Part shown: piece by piece, positions 5,251 to 60,984 of the stretch
Position numbering within the stretch: the first letter of the stretch is position 1
Layout: each line of letters starts with the position of its first letter
DNA from: Dictyostelium fasciculatum
Lineage: Eukaryota
Length of the DNA stretch: 64,000 nt
Direction: 5' to 3'
Assembly: GCF_000203815.1 (NCBI RefSeq)
Contig: NW_004457695.1
Span: 1,296,054-1,360,053, forward strand
Position numbers and translations under genes: made by a program
Notes under the pieces: model-generated
Database searches by the model: none
What the model was told of the DNA's origin: nothing
The model's input: only the letters and a program-made list of their open reading frames with translations

Positions 5251-8200
5251 TAATAATAATAATAATAATGCATCTGCAACCAAAGTAGCAGAGAAAAGTC
5301 CAACCAACTTTTCATTATCGTTAAATAATAGTAATAATGCAGTACATGGTAGATCGACAACACCATCGTCACCATCTTTAAAGGGTCGACAGAGTAGTGT
5401 CGATCTTGGTCAACACAGTAAACATAGTCCGTGTCTAGGAGGTGATCCTTTGACATGTGAAATTGCAACTTCATCTACTCCTTTATTGTCTCAATCATCG
5501 AACGCCGCCACCTCTGTGACAGCAGCCGCTGAAAAGAAAAAGAAAAAGAGAAAGAAACAAAAGGTTAACTTGTGGCATTTTATCACTAGCTATCAAATCA
5601 TTGAAGGGTGTTCAATACTATTTATACTCTTTCTGATGGTTTTGTTATCGTTTGGGTTGTCAGTAAGCTACTTTTCATACACTCATTATCGACAAGAAGA
5701 AAACAAGAATATCGAAGCTGACCTTGAACGAACGACCAAACAATTGATACACAACTTTGACGTTGCCACTACAAGTGTATATTATGGTTTAAATTCCGTA
5801 AAAGTATGAAGACACACAGACATTCAAAAAACAACACAATAGATATCTTTCTTTATTATTGCAATAATTAATTCATTTTAATTAACCTTTTTGCAAATCA
5901 TCCATCCATCCTAGGGATTGTATTATACTTTGCCAACATTTAATAGAACAGAATATTTGGTATTTCGAAATATATCAATGTACAATACAAAGACTGATAT
6001 GAAGAATTGGTATTGGGTAGTTAAAGTATGGGACAAAGACCGAGAAGAATTTGAAAAGACAAATAATTTGGTCATCAAAGAATGGACTGGATCAAAGTTT
6101 GAAAGATCAGGAACTAAAGATTATTATTTCCCCATTCTTTATATTTATATGACCAATCATAAAACTGTACCTACTGAAGAAGGTTTTGATGTTTGTATCT
6201 TTAAATTTAAATATTTAAAACTCTTATTAACTATTTCTCTTCTCTTTTTCTTTCTTTTTAAATCTTAAATTTTAGGAATTAGTTGGATATGATTTACAAG
6301 GACATCAAGGATATGGAGCAACTATTGTAGATGCAATGAATAATCCTGGTATATCTTTATCATTTACTCAACCTTCATTATCAATGTATATGAATCAAAC
6401 GTCGGATATCATTCTGCTGTCTACCCCTGTATTCAAGAATGCAGTGTTTCCACTAAACGAGGAGGACAGACTAAAAGAATGTGCTGGGTTTTCAATTGGA
6501 CTATTTGTCATTGGTGACTTTATCCAACAATCTGGTGTCAATATCGATAACTTTATGGATATTGATCTCTTTATCTCGGATGCTTTTCACAATGTACTCT
6601 ATCAAAGCTCAACCTACAACCTCAAGAGAACAAACAATGTCGCAGACTCTCCACACTTTAGCGGTCGACAACGATACATCTCGACGTTTGAGTTGGCAGA
6701 CTCCAAGTTTTACTTTATCACCTTTTCGACAAAGTCATTCGAGGATATGAGCAGAACATCGTCGCCGGTATTGGTCGCCGTCATCTCGGGCGTACTCACC
6801 ATCATTGTTCTGGTCTACTTTTGGGAGCAGAAACGAAAGCGTCACTACATTGACAAGATCATGAAGGAAAAGAGTGAATTGCTCAACAAGATCCTTCCCC
6901 AAGAGGTGTCTGTCAAACTCGAAAATGGAGAGGACGTCGTAGCCGAGCGATCCAACGCAGCCTGCGTGTTTTTCCTCGATATCGCAGGGTTCACCCGGTT
7001 CTCATCGATCCATACACCCGAGCAGGTCATCCAAGTGCTCATCAAGATATTCAACATTATCGACAACCAATGTGCCGCACATGGTGTCGAAAAGATAAAG
7101 ACGATTGGAGACGCCTATATGGCAACTGTAGGCATTTCACCAAAGTCTGACGACATGAAGAAAAACACAGAGATGATGCTCGACTTTTCATTGGCCACAC
7201 TCGAAGCTATCCAGCTCGGTGTAGCCAGCCATCTCGGTCTCAAGGTGCGAATCGGTATTCATTGCGGACCTGTCATATCAGGTGTCATCTCGGGTGACTC
7301 TAAACCACACTTTGACGTGTGGGGTGACACTGTCAATGTCGCATCGCGTATGGAGTCGACCGGTCTACCCGGCTATATCCACGTATCAGACCGTGTCTAC
7401 CAGATCAGTCGCGACCACTTTGAATACTCGCACGAATGCAAAAAGATCTTTGTCAAGGGCAAGGGTGAGATGAAGACATGGTTTTTGGCCGGCAGACGTG
7501 ACCCCAACACCCCATTCAACCGAGCACTCGATCTCGGACACAGTATCGACTCCTCACCAAACTACCGCGAAATCTCTCCCCTTGCCAGTAGTATGGCTGC
7601 GGGTGCACACCACCTTCCTCATGAAATGGACTATCTCAACATTGAATCACCAACAATCAGTCCCATCAAACTAAAGTTTAATCATAATATTAGACTTGTA
7701 ACAATTGGTGATCAAGATATTATTCAAGTTTATGCACCATCTACAAGTAGTGGTAGTAGTAGTGGTAAAAGCGAGACATCAAGTAATATTAGTAATACAG
7801 ATACATTAAGTCAAATTAGTAGTAGCAGTAGTAGTGGTAGCATTATTGAACAATCTCACCGACACGAAAAGAAGATACTACCAAAGGGTGATTGGAGTGG
7901 ATACTCTGCACCTAACCTCCCTCAGGTCAAACACACATACTCCCCAATCCAACCTCTACAACTACAACAACATGGTGGATGTATGGGAGCACAAAAGATA
8001 CTTGATAATGGGTTGATATATAGTCCCGATTCATGTGCACCTGGTAACCACCCACCCACACGTAGAAACTCACATACTTTTAACCATGTACACGGATACT
8101 TTGATAGTGCCAAAGACCACGCAACACACTTTGTAGAGAACCGGTGTCAGAGAAGAGACTCAGTGCAACGAAGTTACTCACCTCATGGTCTACGTAATCC

Positions 8201-10085: not shown

Positions 10086-12123
10086 TATAATATCACAACC
10101 TAATACTACTACTACTGTAATATTACAATATTTATCTATTTTAATTATTTGTACAATCAAACTATAATAATAATAGAATAATAACAATTATAAGTCGACT
10201 TGAAGTTGTTATCAAACCGCACTGCGCAGAGCACTTCGTCGATTCGTTTTTTTTTTTATTCATTTGTATATCTATCTCTATCCTTTCATTCACACAGACA
10301 CGCTTGGTAATAGAGACCATGAACCTGCTGTGATCACTCATGTTGAAAAGGCCTTTATTTTAAATTTGTAGACTCAAATTTCATTAATATTATATTATTA
10401 TTTAGACACTAGTACTAAGTTAGTTGTTTGATGACCATCACCCGGTCAAGTCTATTGATCTAGACTTGACTCTATCCTTTCACCAAAGATGTGATTGGAT
10501 GATCATCTACCTTGCGAGTATTTGCTTTCCGGTCTCTTCATGCTTGACTGTTTAGAAGGTTGCACAGGCACGCTTGGTAATAGAGCCCATGAAACTCGAT
10601 GTGATAACACTCTCTTCTTTGATAAGCTCTTATTGCGAGAATTGTCATTATGGAAGACAATTCAGCTGATTTCAGTCATCATCTGAAAACCAAATTTAAT
10701 TGAACTTTATTATTATTATCTAGTGTCTAGATTAAGATGATCGAATGAAGAAGAGGACAACTTACAAACTTACAAATTGATCACAAACCTATTCCTTCTT
10801 CTTCTTCTTCTTTTTTAACTCCCATCTTTTTCGTATCTATCTTCACCAACCCACCCACTTGCTCACTCACTCACCCTGTCACGCATACTTATTAAAGATA
10901 GATAGATAGATAGATAGGATAGGATAAATAGATATAAAGCCTACCTACCTACCTACCGACCAACATCTTTCATTCTTTTCTGATCATAAAGATCTTTATC
11001 AAATCTCATACCCTCTACAAGCAAGTCAACCCACACCACGTTCAATTTCAATCAATCATGAAAGTCATTCATGTAGGATGCTTCAAGAGAACTGACACAC
11101 CACACAACACAACACACATATATATATATACATCCCACAAAACAGATATAATATGAAGAAGTACTTGGAATGTGAGTAACTGTGGTGGGGTTCGTATGTT
11201 GTGTGTGTGTGTATGATCAGTTCGTTCATGGTATTTTACTAACAGGAGGTAACCTCTCCTCTCCTCCTACACTTACTCCTCCTCAACAACAACGTTGTCA
11301 TGTTGCTGGGTGAGGTGGGATTCATTACTGTGAAATGACAAATCAAGTAACCACAGACACATACACACAATCGGGTGGGTAGTATCATATGAAAAGAGGA
11401 GGTGCAAGTATATGGCAGATATTTGTGCCATATATCATCCACTCTCCTCTTTTCTTCTTCCCTCTTCTTTCTCTTCAATTCATCCATCCAACAGATGATG
11501 AGATGGATGAATGTAATGTGTAATACTACATTTAATTATTCGTTTGCAGCATCCATCAATCAGCCCATACCATCTGATGGATGATGATTGATGATGTTGG
11601 TGATGATGATTGTCTACTTCTAAAATTGCAATCTTTTGTTTATTGCTGTTATTGCTGCTGTTGATGATGATCATCAACAATTCCATCATCCTCCTCCTCC
11701 TCCTCCACTCTAGAATACAAATACTCTTGATTAAGAACACTTGACTCTTTTTATTATTTCTCTCTGTATCGTATTGTATCATCCTTCATCAATCGATCAA
11801 ACCCAAACACCAAACACCAACAACTGTTGTTGCAGTTGTCGATAAATTATATTTATTTTTGGATGTGTAGAGTGGAACAAACAAGAAGGATGTATTGATT
11901 GTAGGTGGCACATAATATAATATATATATATATATTATATTGCTACCTCCTTGTTTGTTTTGTTGGTCTGGTGTGTGGTATTTAATTTCTAGTTGCTGTT
12001 ATTGTTGCAGCAACGCTGTTGTTATTGTTACCATCGCCAAGTTACGACCATACGATGAGAATCATGCAGGCTGGCAGACTGGCAGGTAGTAGTAGTAGAC
12101 TGATATAATAATTTATGATCACG

Positions 12124-51955: not shown

Positions 51956-53716
51956 TTATTTTGTCTTTTTCATATCAATTAATTCAATTGTATCATTTGA
52001 ATCGAATGAAAAAGAGGTATGACCAAATGATTTAAAGAATTGAGCATGTTCTTTGTTTGTATAACCTTGATTGATAAAAGCAGCCATACGTGATAATGCA
52101 AGACATTGTCTTACAAGAATTTGATAGTCTAGTGCTCCAGCAATCATTAACAATGTCATAAACATACCAGCATGGGCAAATACTAAAGGTCCCTCGCACT
52201 CTATAGTATGATGAATGCGATCTTTTGAAACCCTATCCTTTTTCATACACAGCTTTGCAGTAAATCCATTCATTTCAATCAACTTTAGGTAAGCAACCAA
52301 TGCCTTTTCATAACTTGTTTCTTGATATGATACTGCAAGTCCTGTAAATGGATGTTGTAATTCTAATTGATATGGTCTTTCTGGATCATTATATGTATTT
52401 TTTAATTGTTTCATCATCTAAAAATAAAAATAATTAATAATTAATAATTAATATTATTTAAAGATTTAATATCTCTTTTTTTTTTTTCTATTTTTTTTTA
52501 CCAATTCTAATTTAGGACCAAAAATTCCTGGTGTAGCATTATCATGATATAATTTTGGACGAATATTTTGAAAATAATCTTCACATATTAATTTACGTAG
52601 ATGACAATTGGCTGCAGATTCTTGACTATCCAATCGACAAAGTTTACATTCACATAGACCAATATGATCTTTTCTTTCGGAATAGGAGAGATTTGATACT
52701 GATTTTCTTGAAATGAAAATTTCTTCTCCTGCTTTGAGACTTTGTGCCGCCACGACAAAGATATAATCACCAATATTAAAATAACCTGCATTTTGAATGC
52801 AGGCATGATTGACTAGTGTAAGCATGGGCCAGAGTCCCCAAGCACCAACAATTGAAATAAAATTACCACCAAAAAGAGCAAGTTGTGATATTTCAACATT
52901 TAAAAATTTTCTATCATTTTGATTGTAATTGATATCCATTTTCTCTGTCTCTTGATTGTTGATAAATTTAAAATCTTCTAGTTGTAAATTTGGATCGGCT
53001 TGAACTCGTTCTACCAAATTATTCGTACCCTCTTCAAATTGCATAATTTGTGGTGCAAATGCCAATATTGCTCTACATTGACGATGTTGATGTTGATTTA
53101 GACTCGGCATGGCCTTTGTACATTCTCTCAACATGTTTAATGAATCTTGTTGGTCGAAAATCAATTTCTGACTACTTAGACCTTTGACATATTTGACCGC
53201 CTTGTTTACAAATAGAATGGTTCCGCCCTGTACATCTCTAGTACATTCCAAACCAATTCTATCTGTATTGATAAATGGTGCTGTTTTGGTTCTGGTCTTT
53301 TTAATTCTTACTGGACCAATATACTCGCTAATATCAGTCTCTTCAGTTGCCTTTAGATGTTCTTTGAGTTCTTTGAATTTGAATATACCATTGTCTCGTT
53401 CCTCTAATCTTGCCAAACAATCTCGTACATTTAATTTCAACTCTTTATGTTCACTTTTTGGTTGTGTCTCTAATAGTCGATTATTACATTCCAATGCCTT
53501 TTCATACATTCCAACTGCATAATATCCTTTTGCCAATCTTGTCAATAATCTTGCAATATTATTATCTTCCAACGTACCAGATGCCAACAGTGGTTCACCC
53601 AATGCAAATGCTTCATGGTATCGATAGAGTGATAGTAATGCCGACAACTTGTTGAGTAAAAGAGTTTCATGTTGTGCGTCAATCTCTAATCCCTTGTCAT
53701 AACATTCCAATGCCAA
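51956..53716 (-). CDS. SET-domain protein with N-terminal TPR repeats (~570 aa). Exons 52502..>=53716 (5' end unresolved) and 51956..52417, intron 52418..52501
   Basis: TPR motifs (DEWRLKGNTNYTNKKFELALECYDKGLEID..., ...YYAVGMYEKALECNNRLLE). SET core ...GGNFISIVGAWGLWPMLTLVNHACIQNAGYFNIGDYIFVVAAQSLKAGEEIFISR and post-SET Cys (CECKLC). A GTAAAA..TTTTAG phase-0 intron links ...PKLEL|MMKQLKNTYNDPERP.... The 5' end is problematic: the TPR reading frame is open back to an in-frame TAA at about 53798, and the only upstream ATG (about 53867) is separated from it by that stop (see findings). Confidence 0.7.
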
Positions 53717-54202
53717 TTCAAACTTTTTGTTTGTATAATTTGTATTTCCTTTTAATCTCCATTCATCAATTGGTAAAGTAGTTGTTGTTGTTGTTGGTTA
53801 AGGTTTTGGTTTACTTGTATTTGTTGTTGGTTTGGGTTGGTTTGTTGATTTTTTTGCCATTCTATCCTTTTAAATTTATCTTTATAAAGTACAGTATGCC
53901 TCGTGTGCTTATTCATTGTAACGAAAAAATTATTCAATTTTTTTTAATTTTTTTTAATTTTTTTTTCGAAACCTGAGCCAACTTTGACAAAAAAACATTT
54001 CCTCTAAATCAAATCAACAGCAACAGATAAACTGTAACTACTATATAACTATGTGATATCTATATATGAGGATTAGATAATATAATAAGATAATGAATGT
54101 TTATTGAATATGTTTGGGTTTAAATACTCGCTGGGAGCAGAGTAGTATGACACTATGCTCACATAAACTTTTTTTTTGCCGGCAAAAAAACAACAAAAGA
54201 CT

Positions 54203-54273
54203 AGCTTTTCATCGTATCGATCGATGCACCTGTGGGTTATGAGCCCACCGCTCTACCACTGAGCTAAAAAGCT
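54203..54273 (-). tRNA. tRNA-Met (anticodon CAT), initiator-type
   Basis: Manual cloverleaf on the minus strand: AGCTTTT-TA-GCTC-AGTGGTA-GAGC-G-GTGGG-CTCATAA-CCCAC-AGGTG-CATCG-ATCGATA-CGATG-AAAAGCT. A1:U72, three G:C pairs at the base of the anticodon stem, and an A-initial T-loop (ATCGATA in place of TTCGAAT) are all eukaryotic initiator hallmarks. Confidence 0.85.
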
Positions 54274-54319
54274 TTGCTATATATGGCTTGTGAGACCATG
54301 AAAAATCCGGGTATATATA

Positions 54320-55312
54320 TACCCCCCTCTCTGCTGACGTCGTTGGGTACCGTCTAGCGTCCCACCTTGAGCGTCTTGACCGTAAGCCAGCAATGGAACC
54401 AGACAAAAGAGGAAGAGTACCTCTCAAACAAGTGTACCTCCAAAGGCTGACCATATCCAACGAAAAGTGGAACGTGTACGACCCGACCCCAGGCCAAAAG
54501 ATCTTAGCAACCGATGACAGAGTGTATCCAATGAATGCACTAGCTGCTCTATCTACCATCGTACTACCAAAGGGTCGAGATCTGGTTTGGAAATACGTAA
54601 CCAAATGTCTCCCGCTCGTCAGGGGTGACCCAGTCGCCTCCACCTGTGTGACGTGTGGCAAAGATGAATCCTCCAAGCATTTGTTCTTCCAATGCAAGGA
54701 GACCACGCTGCCAGTGAAGATACTGAAAGAGGTTACTGCTGCCAACAACATTCCACCACCAGTCTGGGACATCACCCTCCTCAACCTCAAACAAACTCCA
54801 ATGACTATAAACTTGGTCGCTGCAACACTAGAACGAATATGGTTCCGACGTAATGATCTACGTCACCAAAGAGATGAACCATTCACTGAACAATACCTGC
54901 GAGCTAGATTGATAAGTGATATGCGACATATTATAAAAGTAAACTGGGACAAGACGTTAGAATTATGTAACCGATGGCACTTGGCTCTAATGAACCAAAC
55001 CGACGAATCAGTAATACATACGATTACAGAACGAATACAAACTATCATCCTTCGATTCTCCTCCAACTACAACCATCCTACTGTCTACAAGATCGCACTA
55101 CCTAGTCATTTAGAGAGGTACAAGACTCTGCGTACTCTTCATCTATAATCGTTCACCCTCAGCTTCATTCCTCTCATCCTCTTCACCACCGCCATCCTCT
55201 TCTATTCTCTCTACAACTATCAATAATAATATTAATAATATAATAATTCACTAAATAATATGAATAATAATAATTATATCAACCCAGTATTGTAGCCTAT
55301 AGTGCTAGTGAG

Positions 55313-55346
<34 letters not shown>

Positions 55347-55645
55347 ATAGCGATATCTTTAACCAATTTATTTTTAGAACAAGCAACAATCCAAAACAAT
55401 CCAACATGCTTGACACTATACAAAAAGATACATGATCAACGTCCATACAACATGTATCATAGACATGGACAAACCCCCAGAACAAATTAACTTTAATTCT
55501 TCTTGAGATAATCTTTATTTCTTGCTGGTCAATTAAAAAGTAAAATTAATAAAACTTTGTAACTTCTGAGTACTACTCTTCCCGATAGGAGAGAACAGGA
55601 AAAGAATTACTTTAAAAAAAAAAAAAAATACCCCCCCCCCCCCCG
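54320..55645 (+). mobile_element. 5'-truncated non-LTR (LINE-type) retrotransposon of the tRNA-gene-targeted kind (TRE5-like), copy 1: ORF2 C-terminal ~250 codons, 3' UTR, internal A32, conserved 3' module ending in A15
   Basis: The ORF 54393..55148 encodes the characteristic LINE RT C-terminal segment (...VWKYVTKCLPLVRGDPVASTCVTCGKDESSKHLFFQCKETT... Cys/His knuckle). A32 lies at 55313..55344. The 3' module ACTACTCTTCCCGATAGGAGAGAACAGGAAAAGAATTACTTT plus A15 lies at 55573..55628. The element sits roughly 50-120 bp from the 5' end of the minus-strand tRNA-Met, with its own 5' end facing the tRNA. Its exact 5' boundary is not determinable by eye. Confidence 0.8.
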
Positions 55646-56067
55646 AGTTTGGAATTTTTCTGAAATAGAGAGAAAGAGATAGAAACAGAGAATTACGTAT
55701 AGAGTACTATAGAACTTCTCTCAAACATCAACTATCTTCAACTATCTTCAACTATCTTTTATCAACATTACTATTTCTTCACACTCACTAAAAGCCACAA
55801 CTAATTGCCCTAGTGTGCCCCCTTGTTCAATTATTTATAGAGAGAACAATATCAATAAAGATAATACAGGTTATTAGATATTGACACATTCATTGTTGGT
55901 AAAGAAAGTGACTCATTCGTAATATTATCACCAGATCAACCAACAACAACAACAACAACACAAGATGATATAGTAAAAGTAAAGAAACAAACAAAGAGAT
56001 CATCAAAGAAAAAGACAAGTCACGATGATTTTGAAAATGATCAAGGTAAGAAGAGGCTACTAGTACA

Positions 56068-56901
56068 ATGCTATCCGTTGAGTATAAATGTATATTAACT
56101 GTATATTTTCATGTAGATATAACCAATTTTACAGAGAATGAATTAAAATGTAAATTTAAACAAGAGTTGATTGTAATTTGCAATAGATTGGGTATACAAT
56201 CATCAAATAGTCAATTAAAAGATACAATTATCCAACAAATCATCAAACAACAAGAATTTAAAAGCAAGATGGTTGACAATAATAAACCTTTATTCGATTA
56301 CAACAAGGGATCACTCGAATATTCATTACCGTGGCCAATCATCAGTAGAATAATCACACAGTTTTGGCAGGAATCATCTATTTGTACTTGTTACTATAAT
56401 CAACAAACAATAGATACTATAAAAGCAAACCAATATAAACGGTGTGGCGTAATGTGGCCAATATATCTATCAATGTTTGATGATAGTAAAGAATCTGCGA
56501 TGCAATGTCCAATGCATAGATACCACTATTTAAATGATTTGGATCCATCAATCAATATTGCCAGACCCTTTACATCAACAGTCAATGACAAGAACAAATG
56601 GAGATTTCAACTACTCAACATATCAAAGCGAGTCAATCAATTCATATCATCAATTTATTTTGATAATATTTCATTCAAACTCGATCAAGAAACATGGAGT
56701 CATCTCAACAACAATCAATATTGTCCAATTAAATCACCAAAAATAGTTCATTTGTATGATACAAAAGATGACCTCTCATTTATTGGAGATCAAAATATCG
56801 TTGCAACGATATTTAATATGGTTGAAAACCTAACACTTGATAATGTTAATCTCAAAGCACCCAACAACAAGATTATACCAAAAGTATTCAATAATATCTA
56901 A
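56068..56901 (+). CDS. Hypothetical protein with an N-terminal SAP-like helix motif (277 aa)
   Basis: ATG ORF; ...ENELKCKFKQELIVICNRLGIQSSNSQLKDTIIQQIIKQQ resembles a SAP motif. An upstream in-frame open segment with a GTAAGA donor and a TCATGTAG acceptor exists but contains no ATG, so the model starts at 56068. It lies immediately 3' of retrotransposon copy 1. Confidence 0.45.
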   Translation: MLSVEYKCILTVYFHVDITNFTENELKCKFKQELIVICNRLGIQSSNSQLKDTIIQQIIKQQEFKSKMVDNNKPLFDYNKGSLEYSLPWPIISRIITQFWQESSICTCYYNQQTIDTIKANQYKRCGVMWPIYLSMFDDSKESAMQCPMHRYHYLNDLDPSINIARPFTSTVNDKNKWRFQLLNISKRVNQFISSIYFDNISFKLDQETWSHLNNNQYCPIKSPKIVHLYDTKDDLSFIGDQNIVATIFNMVENLTLDNVNLKAPNNKIIPKVFNNI

Positions 56902-56952
56902 TCAATCACTGCTAAATATTCAAATACCACAACAACAACAAATCAAAAACAA

Positions 56953-58789
56953 TTGGAATATGACCGATTATGTAAACCTCAATTCCTATCAAGTTTTAAG
57001 AATCTCACATCAATCAATTTACAATCGTATCAACCTTTAGAAAAAGAAAACAGAGAATCATTTTTGGCAATCCTATCAAAAACAATGACAAGAAGAATAA
57101 CCAAACTATTACTTCCAATCGATTGGTGCCGGTCGGTAAATCTTGACACTAAATTCAACCTAGGTATTGTCAATAGCAATATTATTCCACTACCACAAAT
57201 GAGAAATTTGAAAACATTCCATTATTACAACTATTCCTTATACCGTTCCTCATTTGATAATCCAAACCTTACAACTCTTGTCGATCATTCTTGTGGTGAT
57301 CATGGGAGTGGGTATATTAGCACATTTATCAACAGTCTTCCAACAACCATTTCAACAATCAAGCTCAAACCTGGCACCTCTCTCTTTAAACATTTATTTT
57401 CGGACCAAACTCTTGGTTTGTTGAATCTCAACAAACTATTAATAGACTATGATTTTGAAATAACTGATCAAATAATCAATCATTTTGCAAAGTATGGATA
57501 TCAATATCATGGGGCAAGATTTAAAGGTTCAACAACAAAAAGACAATTCAAATTTATTAAATCAACAACCAATGAACCACTAATTAGATCAACAAAATCA
57601 ACTACTACACCAACTTTTCAAAATGAAATTGTCCTTAATAATAATAATAATACAACACTTGCCTATTTTTTAATTGAAAAGATTGTTAGATACTCTTGGA
57701 ACAGTTATTATTGTACTTGTGAACAAATTACCAACCACAAAGACTCCATTAAACTACAATGTCAGCAACTATTCAATGCAAAATCAATATGCCCTGTTCA
57801 CAAGAATAGTGATACACCAAAGAAAGATACCGATGAAAATATTCTTTATCAAAATATTAATCAACTTCGATTTGGATTGTCGCTTGTATGCAAACGATTA
57901 TTTGAATTTATTTCAAAACATCTTATCAAGAATATATATATATATATCATATGCATATCAACACTCGGAAATCAGCAAGTACCAAACACATTTTTCAAAT
58001 CCATATTGTTTGCTTGGTAAATCAATTGAATACCTTGTCGTGGATTTTAGTCAAGATCAAAATAACCTTCACCTTGATCATAGCTATTCAAATGTAAAAA
58101 AGTTTAATACTGGATGTGGGTTTGGTCCCACAAAAAATCAAGACTTGCTTGCATCGATTCTTTCATTTAAATCACTCACCGAATTGGACTTGTCTAATTG
58201 TTCAGATATAACAATTAACTATTTAATGGATAGTCTAAAGAACTTGTCACTCAGAAAGCTCTTTTGCGGGAATGAACCGCCTCAGTCAATGTTTAAAAAA
58301 GATTCATGTCTATCAAAGTCATTGGAGGCAATATCAATCAATTTATCATTTTTGAAATATCAAAGTAACCGACAGGTATTGTACAATCTTTCTCAACTCA
58401 GACATCTCAGAATCATCTGCACCAAAAAACACAAAATATCATACGCCGACGGTATTTATAGACGAGTTGCTCTATCCCTTCCACCTGGTATTCTTAAAAA
58501 ATCAACAAATGATGCCTATGTCACGAGGATCATCATTCATAATCCTCAAATCAATCAATTGGTGATACTCGAGAATACTACACATTCCTATCGTGTTGAT
58601 CTAGTCTACCACCAAGATCTTTTCCAACTGAAAATCCAAAAGATTGTCATCATATCAAGTAAACACCAATATTTGCAGTTTTACAAACCAAACAACTTTC
58701 AATTCATTGGTGCTTTTGTGACAAATATGGATCAATCCATCGGTTGCAAGAGAGTCTACATAAAAAGAAAAATAAATCAATCCAATTAA
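56953..58789 (+). pseudogene. LRR-containing ORF, in the same frame as the 56068..56901 gene but separated from it by a single TAA, with an internal +1 frame change near 58010..58050; possible pseudogene
   Basis: 56068..56901 and 56953..58020 share frame 1 with only TAA 56899..56901 between them, and there is no AG that could define an intron removing the stop. 57674..58789 is frame 2 and carries LRR-like segments (LTELDLSNCSDITINYLMDSLKNLSLRKL). The only splice-like solution is a 34-nt GTAAAT..TTTTAG segment, which is shorter than any intron seen here. Confidence 0.4.
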
Positions 58790-58834: not shown

Positions 58835-59503
<669 letters not shown>

Positions 59504-59816
59504 TTATCAATCAACAACATGTTGATTATTTATAGTTGTCTTTTATGATCGAGTCATAAAGAGTAAAAGAGATCACCATCCTTAAAGTGAAAGTCTGATT
59601 GCTGAGTATTAAAATATGACTCAAAATTCGCTGAAGCTCAGTGACTCACGAAATTATAAAATTAAAAAAAAATGATATTAAATAAAGAAAATTTGGTGAA
59701 TAAATACCACTTTTGTATATTTATTCAAAATAATAATTCATTTTATTCCTACCAACTACTCGATAGGGAATTGAGCAAAAAAAAAAAGATCCAGGTGCCT
59801 AAAACATAAAAAAGAG

Positions 59817-59887
59817 TGCACCAACCGAGAATCGAACTCGGATCGAATCCGTGGCAGGGATCCATTCTACCATTGAACCATTGGTGC
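59817..59887 (-). tRNA. tRNA-Gly (anticodon GCC)
   Basis: Minus strand: GCACCAA-TG-GTTC-AATGGTA-GAAT-G-GATCC-CTGCCAC-GGATT-CGAT-CCGAG-TTCGATT-CTCGG-TTGGTGCA. Canonical cloverleaf closely matching eukaryotic tRNA-Gly(GCC). Confidence 0.9.
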
Positions 59888-60123
59888 TACTGTTGAATAT
59901 TTTTCTGATCTCTGGGCCTGGACCCGCCCACGTGGGCGATTTCTTTTTTTTTTGAGGATAGAAAGCCATCTGACATCTCTAATACAATATGCAACACCTA
60001 AAGACGAGTGTCCACAATGGGGAGTAAATCGGCGCGAGAGTTGAGAGCGGCAGTCGGTTTTGGACGCACCCAAGGCTTAGGTTTCACCGCAAGTATGGTA
60101 ATTTCGGAGTTGTTGCCATATTT

Positions 60124-60500
60124 GCGTCAACCTCAAACAACCTCCAATGACCATAAACTTGATTGCTGCAACCCTCGAACGAATATGGTTCCGAAGTAAT
60201 GATCTACGCCACCAAAGAGATGAACCATTCACTGAACAATACCTGCGAGCTAGATTGCTAAACGATATGCGGCATATTATAAAAGTAAACTGGGACAAGA
60301 CGTTAGAATTATGTAATCGATGGCACTTGGCTCTAATGAACCAAACCGACGAATCAGTAATACATACGATTACAGAACGAATAAAAACTATCATCCTTCG
60401 ATTCTCCTCCAACTACAACCATCCTACTGTCTACAAGATAAAACACTACTCTTCCCGATAGGAGAGAACAGGAAAAGAATTACTTTAAAAAAAAAAAAAA
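60124..60500 (+). mobile_element. Second, shorter copy of the same TRE5-like retrotransposon: ORF2 extreme C-terminus fused by internal deletion to the conserved 3' module plus A14
   Basis: 60127..60438 is about 95% identical to 54781..55098 of copy 1 (ORF 60147..60461: TINLIAATLERIWFR...HLALMNQTDESVIHTITERI). It then jumps directly to ...AACACTACTCTTCCCGATAGGAGAGAACAGGAAAAGAATTACTTT-A14 (60441..60500). It lies about 240 bp from the tRNA-Gly 5' end in the same head-to-tRNA arrangement as copy 1. Confidence 0.8.
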
Positions 60501-60697
60501 AGCGATTTTTTTTTCTCTCATTTGGGCAAATTAGCTACATCGCTATCTACCTTCCTAACTAAAACTAATCACTATCTAACAACTACTACAAATTAAACAA
60601 CAATAATATTAAATCATTAATTTAAAAATAAAAAATATGACTTCAGTGGTGATTTATTAAAAACAAAATTTTAACGATGGATATGGAACACAAATCA

Positions 60698-60741
60698 GAA
60701 TCCGTGGCAGGGATCCATTCTACATTTGAACCATTGGTGCT
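60698..60741 (-). pseudogene. 5' half of a tRNA-Gly(GCC) gene (partial duplicate including the 5' flank)
   Basis: 60698..60760 (CAGAATCCGTGGCAGGGATCCATTCTACATTTGAACCATTGGTGCTACTGTTGAAGATTTTTCC) matches 59843..59905 of the intact tRNA-Gly and its upstream flank. The T-arm and 3' acceptor are absent. Confidence 0.6.
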
Positions 60742-60984
60742 ACTGTTGAAGATTTTTCCGGCATTCCCACATCTTTGGGGATAGAGGCCAGACTTCGATT
60801 GGTCAATAGCTCAATGTAAGAGTGGTTGTCATTGTTTCTTCATGTTTTATACACAAAAAATTGGTGCTCATCGAAGTTGTTTATTCAACTCGTCTTTATA
60901 GCTAAATCAAATCCAAACGACATCAAGCAATATTAGATTGGTTTTAAGTAAATAAATAAATAAATAAATAAATTAAATATATTT

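Follow-up and report, generated by a model that had tools for sequence, protein, structure and literature searches.

A probable 5′-truncated TRE5 retrotransposon copy facing an initiator tRNA-Met gene in Cavenderia fasciculata

The stretch of DNA analyzed here (the window; 64,000 nucleotides (nt), GC content 0.354) comes from the social amoeba Cavenderia fasciculata, deposited as Dictyostelium fasciculatum (assembly GCF_000203815.1, contig NW_004457695.1, positions 1,296,054 to 1,360,053 of the forward strand). Next to an initiator transfer RNA (tRNA) gene, it contains a segment at 54328..55628 (+) that is very probably a 5′-truncated, dead copy of a C. fasciculata TRE5-family retrotransposon of the L1 clade, which lacks long terminal repeats (non-LTR). 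A second and shorter insertion (copy 2) lies about 5 kb from this first one (copy 1), at 59954..60501 (+), upstream of a minus-strand tRNA-Gly gene. Both copies show the TRE5 position and orientation relative to a tRNA gene, together with an oligo(A) tail and target-site duplications, the signature of target-primed reverse transcription. An earlier note, made from the sequence alone, had proposed a TRE5-like element over 54203-55645. The element features that it named are all present within those limits, but the C14 run at 55631..55644 belongs to the flanking target DNA, outside the element.

Copy 1 is a single insertion of 1301 nt. Its limits are given by the 9-mer ATACCCCCC, which occurs at just two sites in the 64 kb, 54319 and 55628, both at element boundaries, where 0.19 occurrences are expected. 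We read this pair as a target-site duplication, with a 5′ copy at 54319..54327 (+) and a 3′ copy at 55628..55636 (+), which gives one insertion spanning 54328..55628. The first A of the 3′ copy is common with the oligo(A)15 tail (55614..55628, +), and its C run extends to 55644. No long direct repeats flanking copy 1 were found. On the left, 45 nt of native spacer (54274..54318) separate the tRNA-Met gene's 5′ end (54273) from the duplication; the insertion boundary lies 54 nt and the colinear ORF2 homology 110 nt from the same tRNA end (ORF, open reading frame). The tRNA gene is on the minus strand and the element on the plus strand to its right, the element's 5′ end being turned toward the tRNA's 5′ end. 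These distances agree with the head-on placement at 50-120 bp that had been proposed, and they supply the exact 5′ junction that the earlier note had asked for.

The target genes were examined with ARAGORN and Rfam. ARAGORN finds two tRNA genes in the window, each on the minus strand, and T runs lie 3′ of both on their own strand. The integration target of copy 1 is tRNA-Met(CAT) at 54202..54273 (−), which scores 59.4 bits against the Rfam tRNA model RF00005 (gathering score 29) and is followed by T4 and T7 runs that form an RNA polymerase III (Pol III) terminator. Eukaryotic initiator tRNA-Met is marked by an A1:U72 pair, three G:C pairs that close the base of the anticodon stem, and A54 and A60 in the T-loop. 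In the Rfam alignment, the acceptor strands read AGCUUUU...AAAAGCU, with A1:U72; the anticodon arm reads GUGGG CUCAUAA CCCAC, in which GGG/CCC closes the stem; and the T-loop is AUCGAUA, with A54 and A60. The gene at 54202..54273 is therefore of the initiator type, as had been suspected. The target of copy 2 is tRNA-Gly(GCC) at 59816..59887 (−), with a score of 64.9 bits.

The coding part of copy 1 is a fragment of ORF2. The open frame at 54393..55148 (+) encodes 251 amino acids, with the stop codon at 55146..55148. In a search of 5.8 billion proteins, close relatives of the window ORF came from C. fasciculata only, the best being DFA_07446 at 97% identity, which places the window in that species. 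Colinear protein homology begins at 54384, which corresponds to residue 203 of the paralog P0001 and residue 353 of the paralog P0004, and continues in one frame to the stop. This region (54384..55148, +) represents the C-terminal ~255 codons of ORF2; it is 96-97% identical to P0001/P0004 by tblastn and aligns with the ORF2 C-termini of Dictyostelium discoideum elements. In P0004 (“Pol”, 561 amino acids, 99% identical to P0001), this C-terminal region connects without a break to a Pfam RVT_1 domain that includes an FADD motif. Because P0004 runs upstream into RVT_1, the window fragment is the C-terminal end of a non-LTR reverse transcriptase (RT) polyprotein. A CX2CX7HX4C zinc knuckle, CVTCGKDESSKHLFFQC, lies at 54645..54695 (+), located by a regular expression on the translation and by Pfam zf-RVT. 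The knuckle and the RT-bearing paralog bear out the description of this frame as the C-terminal Cys/His-knuckle end of the RT of a long interspersed nuclear element (LINE). The window ORF aligns with residues 463-702 of 708 in P0006, 761-986 of 993 in P0007, and 820-1055 of 1056 in P0008. The alignments end 1-7 residues short of the C-termini of these D. discoideum proteins, so the stop at 55148 is the authentic ORF2 stop. In the other direction, copy 1 is 5′-truncated, without ORF1, the endonuclease, the RT core, or the promoter, which TRE5 elements carry in the 5′ UTR as the A-module (UTR, untranslated region), and it therefore cannot move or target by itself. The ORF2 of TRE5 elements has an APE endonuclease, an RT, and a zinc finger, in this order. 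Pfam gives no RNase H match in the window ORF or in P0001/P0004, and no APE endonuclease domain was seen in the Cavenderia sequences examined, none of which is full-length.

The assignment to TRE5 was approached through the nearest relatives outside Cavenderia. An exhaustive HMMER search with P0001 as the query against 1.84 billion representatives returned the D. discoideum proteins P0006, P0007, and P0008 as the best non-Cavenderia matches (E 5e-43 to 4e-39; 32-35% identity over ~380 residues). Their loci (L001-L003) all have the TRE5 arrangement, in which a minus-strand tRNA gene lies just to the left of a plus-strand element, and their target duplications measure 10-15 nt. In L001, the tRNA is tRNA-Asp, the duplication is ATAAAATGTT, and the element starts 41 nt from the tRNA; L002 combines tRNA-Val, CATTTTTTTTAAAAT, and 50 nt; and L003 combines tRNA-Thr, GCAATTTTTTA, and 45 nt. 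The earlier identification of a TRE5-like element thus gains an alignment of ~240 residues to the ORF2 C-termini of elements that sit 41-50 nt from a tRNA gene. TRE3-arranged matches, P0013 from Dictyostelium purpureum and P0016 and P0017 from D. discoideum, were obtained at E 4e-27 to 9e-24. In their loci (L004-L006), the element lies just downstream of a plus-strand tRNA gene in the same orientation. Among the matches that were placed, the TRE3-arranged proteins score 12-19 orders of magnitude below the TRE5-arranged ones, and P0013, P0016, and P0017 show no match to the window ORF at E<1e-3. Assignment to TRE3, whose elements lie ~100 bp downstream of a tRNA gene in the same orientation, was rejected because copy 1 is upstream and in the opposite orientation. 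The LTR elements DGLT-A and Skipper-2, which carry LTRs and an integrase and insert ~15 bp up- or downstream of tRNA genes, were also rejected: copy 1 has no flanking repeats, ends in an oligo(A) tail, shows non-LTR ORF2 homology, and begins 54 nt from the tRNA.

In NLTR elements, the place downstream of the RT where a zinc finger would stand is taken by an RNase H domain (PMC5006619, PMC5911963). NLTR-A and NLTR-B were rejected as candidates on this ground, given the CCHC knuckle and the lack of an RNase H match in the window ORF. A broader form of the same idea is that a non-TRE non-LTR element acquired TRE5-like targeting by convergence. Such convergence does exist in dictyostelids, since Pp_NLTR-B of P. 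pallidum, as Spaller et al. (2016, PMC5006619) showed, lies upstream of tRNA genes at 39-64 bp. However, besides the domain content just described, the best matches of the window ORF are the TRE5-arranged ORF2 proteins of D. discoideum, at 31-33% identity over ~240 residues, and convergence is highly improbable as an explanation for copy 1.

The TRE5 assignment agrees with published work on tRNA-targeted elements. The integration site of TRE5-A lies ~50 bp upstream of a tRNA gene, and the 5′ ends of element and tRNA face each other (PMC3159450); the TRE5 range in D. discoideum is 37-95 bp upstream. Like the TRE5-A (DRE) and TRE5-B elements of that species, copy 1 combines ORF2 C-terminal homology (30-33% identity over ~240 residues to the C-terminus) with a CCHC knuckle, head-on orientation, an oligo(A) tail, and target duplications. 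Unlike them, it has a longer 3′ UTR of 480 nt and an A-run separated from the stop by 164 nt, where theirs adjoins it; there is no nucleotide similarity in the UTRs, and no A-, B-, or C-module is recognizable in copy 1. For C. fasciculata itself, Spaller et al. (2016, Mob DNA 7:17) reported Df_TRE5 families totaling 110 copies, with the measured copies 31-98 bp upstream of tRNA genes (PMC5006619, Table 1). The families are Df_TRE5-A.1 (56 copies, 45-88 bp), Df_TRE5-A.2 (20 copies, 31-98 bp; 1275-bp partial consensus), Df_TRE5-A.3 (7 copies, 39-67 bp), and Df_TRE5-B (27 copies, 44-90 bp). Of the consensus sequences from that study, only those of full length went into Repbase, and the Df_TRE5 ones are partial (PMC5006619, Methods). 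Copies 1 and 2 resemble them in species, in being non-LTR elements upstream of tRNA genes (here 54 and 66 nt), and in that most Df_TRE5 copies are partial. Copy 1 is very probably one of the published Df_TRE5 copies, and its arrangement is already known for the species. The closeness of the 1275-bp partial consensus of Df_TRE5-A.2 to the 1301 nt of copy 1 is a lead for placing it, based on a comparison of lengths and not of sequences. The probable 5′ inversion, the internal A32 with a terminal module, and the 475-nt deletion variant discussed below are not described in the text of PMC5006619.

Four observations weigh against the reading of copy 1 as a single TRE5 insertion. The C run of the duplication measures 6 nt in the 5′ copy (54322..54327) and 14 nt in the 3′ copy (55631..55644), a difference that could be due to homopolymer slippage or to priming within the run. 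The match of the window ORF to Pfam zf-RVT (E 3.7e-4) falls under the gathering score. The call between TRE5 and TRE3 is a score ranking combined with the genomic context of six loci. Finally, targeting through an interaction of ORF1 with TFIIIB is carried over to Cavenderia by analogy with D. discoideum.

The 251-codon frame might instead belong to a host gene, a domesticated zinc-knuckle protein derived from a retrotransposon. The frame is open and starts with ATG, and similar fragments are annotated as C. fasciculata hypothetical proteins; the window ORF is 97% identical to one of these, DFA_07446, which belongs to another locus. However, this 97% match is the best one, and the copy 1 locus has no exact annotated protein. 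The ATG at 54393 corresponds to an internal Met of ORF2, which stands within KPAMEPD in P0001, P0004, and P0005, and no promoter-bearing 5′ part precedes it. The copies are cut at different points and are 95-97% identical, which is typical of a recently active repeat family, and the codon differences between copies are evenly divided (6 synonymous versus 6 non-synonymous). On these grounds, a host gene is hardly credible.

Copy 2 is an independent insertion with the same arrangement as copy 1. From the 5′ end of tRNA-Gly, its duplication begins at 48 nt and the element at 66 nt. The 5′ target-site duplication is GCGATTTCTTTTTTTTTT (59936..59953, +), which begins GCGATTTCTTTTT, and the 3′ duplication is GCGATTTTTTTTT (60502..60514, +). 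Within the 64 kb, GCGATTTNTTTTT occurs at the 5′ duplication and at 60502 and nowhere else, and the pattern GCGATTT(N)T5+ of the duplication is likewise limited to the two boundaries of copy 2. The colinear part (60127..60501, +), established by blastn and alignment, joins the 3′ end of ORF2 to the terminal 57 nt. In a blastn self-comparison, 60127..60439 (313 nt) is 95.5% identical to 54781..55093, and 60445..60501 is 100% identical to 55572..55628 (57 nt). Copy 2 ends in A15, a tail of the same length as that of copy 1. It lacks 55102..55576 (475 nt) of copy 1, with the junction between (C)ACTAC repeats and the terminal 57 nt spared exactly. Copy 1 keeps the homologous ORF2 C-terminus and therefore represents the ancestral form, with copy 2 as the deletion derivative. 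About 180 nt past copy 2, at 60683..60758, lies a truncated tRNA pseudogene without an ARAGORN call; it consists of the 5′ ~57 nt of a tRNA-Gly plus 18 nt of upstream flank, at 89% identity to 59831..59905.

The 3′ end of copy 1 was compared with copy 2 and with the D. discoideum loci. The first 164 nt after the ORF2 stop (55149..55312, +) are pyrimidine-rich and then AAT-rich, as judged by sequence and composition. They are followed by an A32 run (55313..55344, +), by a 3′ terminal module of 269 nt (55345..55613, +) that lies within the duplication pair and whose last 42 nt are identical in copy 2, and by the oligo(A)15 tail. The A-tract followed by a 3′ module with an oligo(A) tail had been noted before and is confirmed with these lengths. 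The TRE5-A-like element of L002 has a parallel structure: its ORF2 stop adjoins an A30 run, behind which comes a terminal module of 140 nt (10983..11151 for the run and module together), enclosed by one duplication pair. Copy 1 and L002 thus share the order of internal A-run and terminal module, although the sequences are unrelated. The L002 element, which is assigned to D. cf. discoideum, also has a tandemly repeated 5′ module (5790..5893 and 5998..6095).

The A32 run raises the possibility that two successive insertions occurred at the tRNA-Met gene, an older, extremely truncated copy (55345..55628) having been pushed outwards by a newer one (54328..55344) for which A32 is the tail. Tandem stacking of TRE elements at one tRNA gene is known (PMC5006619, Table S2 note), and at the end of the D. 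discoideum L001 element an AAT-rich stretch leads through a short unique sequence to A27, a structure that resembles 55149..55344. The target duplication speaks for one event: the sole pair brackets the whole of 54328..55628, and the sequence after A32, TAATAGCG, is not a repeat of ATACCCCCC. Copy 2, at another locus, carries the terminal 57 nt fused directly to the 3′ end of ORF2, and therefore the terminal module travels with the element. L002, with A30 between the ORF2 stop and its module, likewise has a single duplication pair. Together, these data argue for an A32 run that belongs to the interior of the element, rather than one that ends a newer insertion of its own, and they make two successive insertions unlikely.

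The terminal 57 nt (55572..55628, +; 42 nt plus A15), 100% identical in both copies by blastn, may have a role in retrotransposition. Retrotransposition of TRE5-A depends on a hairpin within the last ~54 nt of its C-module (PMC3159450). A 6-bp hairpin (CUCUUC/GGAGAG) is predicted in the Cavenderia sequence, and we infer a comparable role for it only by parallel with the TRE5-A C-module. The predicted fold energy is not better than that of shuffled sequences (z -0.5 to -0.9). When metagenome contigs were scanned for the terminal 30-mer, no exact match appeared.

Between the 5′ duplication and the colinear ORF2 homology, copy 1 contains a non-colinear segment of 56 nt with a GC content of 0.59 (54328..54383). 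Its reverse complement reads TVPNDVSRE, which matches KLTQPYDVSRE at residues 338-348 of P0004; the segment is accordingly placed on the minus strand. Three longer paralogs all read KLTQPYDVSRE-AVP-KPAMEPD, in which the matched residues end four codons before the colinear start. The sequence encoded just upstream of the break, SEWEKLTQPYDVSRE, is the candidate source of the inversion. When compared with the 40 residues that precede the break, the inverted match has P 0.006 with shuffled sequences and P 0.008 with genomic 56-mers. In addition, the segment borders the flank with the end whose match has the highest element coordinate, as twin priming predicts. These observations suggest that the 56 nt are an inverted stretch of ORF2 from just 5′ of the truncation, of the twin-priming type, an interpretation that is likely but unproven. 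Three points count against it. Tested on all of P0004, the match lacks significance, its score being reached by 69/300 shuffles; the match comprises 7/11 residues, compared with 96-97% identity in the colinear part; and it was noticed before it was tested. The segment has no match in Rfam.

The 5′ inversions of human L1 elements reportedly arise by twin priming, and the description is said to be that of Ostertag and Kazazian in 2001. As in human L1 5′-inverted insertions, the inverted 5′ part of a truncated insertion lies within the target duplication in copy 1, appears to stem from sequence just upstream of the colinear part, and is joined to it with the loss of a few nt. Unlike those insertions, the segment spans only 56 nt and has imperfect identity, here read at the protein level. 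No description of a 5′ inversion in TRE elements was found in the literature examined.

Copy 2 also begins with a segment that is not colinear with ORF2, 173 nt long with a GC content of 0.48 (59954..60126) and located inside the duplication pair. It has no similarity to copy 1 DNA in either orientation (P 0.3-1.0), no significant match among 155 TRE-like proteins, and no Rfam family, and it scores below background windows with a hidden Markov model (HMM) of the family. Similarity between its start and the flank of the tRNA-Gly fragment, at 60779, is not significant. An origin as an inverted ORF2 piece was considered because of a weak reverse-strand match to residues 479-495 of P0006 (E 0.03, to that one protein), and it was rejected when the match failed the HMM control. 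A more general proposal is that Cavenderia TRE5 insertions regularly carry non-colinear 5′ segments within their target duplications, such as the 56-nt probable inversion and the 173-nt segment. It further holds that the terminal 57 nt correspond to the C-module hairpin, which TRE5-A requires in reverse transcription, and that they follow an internal A-run, as is the case for D. discoideum TRE5-A. We regard this proposal as tentative and rather doubtful.

Our analysis allows a sequence of events to be proposed for copy 1. In D. discoideum, targeting proceeds through an interaction of ORF1 with TFIIIB at a TFIIIC-loaded tRNA gene, integration occurs by target-primed reverse transcription, and 5′ truncation is frequent (PMC3159450, PMC5911963). 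By analogy with D. discoideum TRE5-A, the Pol III complex (TFIIIC/TFIIIB) at the initiator tRNA-Met gene would have been the site to which the element ribonucleoprotein was guided, and the ORF2 endonuclease would have nicked the DNA ~45-55 nt upstream of the tRNA. Target-primed reverse transcription, following the same model, would then have been primed at the nick, with the oligo(A) end of the element RNA as its starting point. The sequence shows colinear copying of only the last ~255 ORF2 codons and the 3′ UTR, and a second priming event on the other DNA strand may have produced the inverted 56 nt by twin priming.

The genes around the two copies were also examined. To the left, 52466..53716 (−) appears to be an intact host gene encoding a protein with TPR and SET domains (Pfam TPR_1 and SET, both above threshold). 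Between the two tRNA genes, 58835..59452 (−) appears to be an intact two-exon gene for an ARF-like GTPase. The antisense ORF at 54209..54790 had been called an artefact of the element; it crosses the tRNA gene and lies opposite a strongly homologous sense ORF, so the call is reasonable. Downstream of copy 1, 56050..56898 and 56902..58017 form one plus-strand frame split by a single in-frame TAA (56899..56901). The frame shifts near 57674-58017, and coding then continues in another frame to 58786. A probable intron occupies 56047..56116, at the start of this frame. A protein database search with 56953..58017 found no homolog, and all Pfam matches of the downstream ORFs are below threshold. The suggestion that the downstream genes are damaged, as may be expected near an insertion hotspot, therefore stands in part: there is one in-frame TAA, one frame change, and no annotated protein match. 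A hotspot as the cause has no support, however, because the element lies outside the downstream frame.

Annotation should mask 54328..55628 and 59954..60501 as TRE5 repeats and call no genes from their ORFs; beyond this, the finding matters little. It provides base-resolved TRE5 target sites in a group-1 dictyostelid, whose duplications begin at distances of 45 and 48 nt from the tRNA genes. Small leads on how TRE reverse transcription starts and ends come from the probable 5′ inversion and from the terminal 57 nt, which are conserved. If the non-colinear 5′ segments prove to be a regular feature, they would indicate that a tRNA-targeted LINE of an amoebozoan uses twin priming as L1 does, or template switching. 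The positions of both copies fit the published view that the targeting of sites upstream of tRNA genes is ancient in social amoebae.

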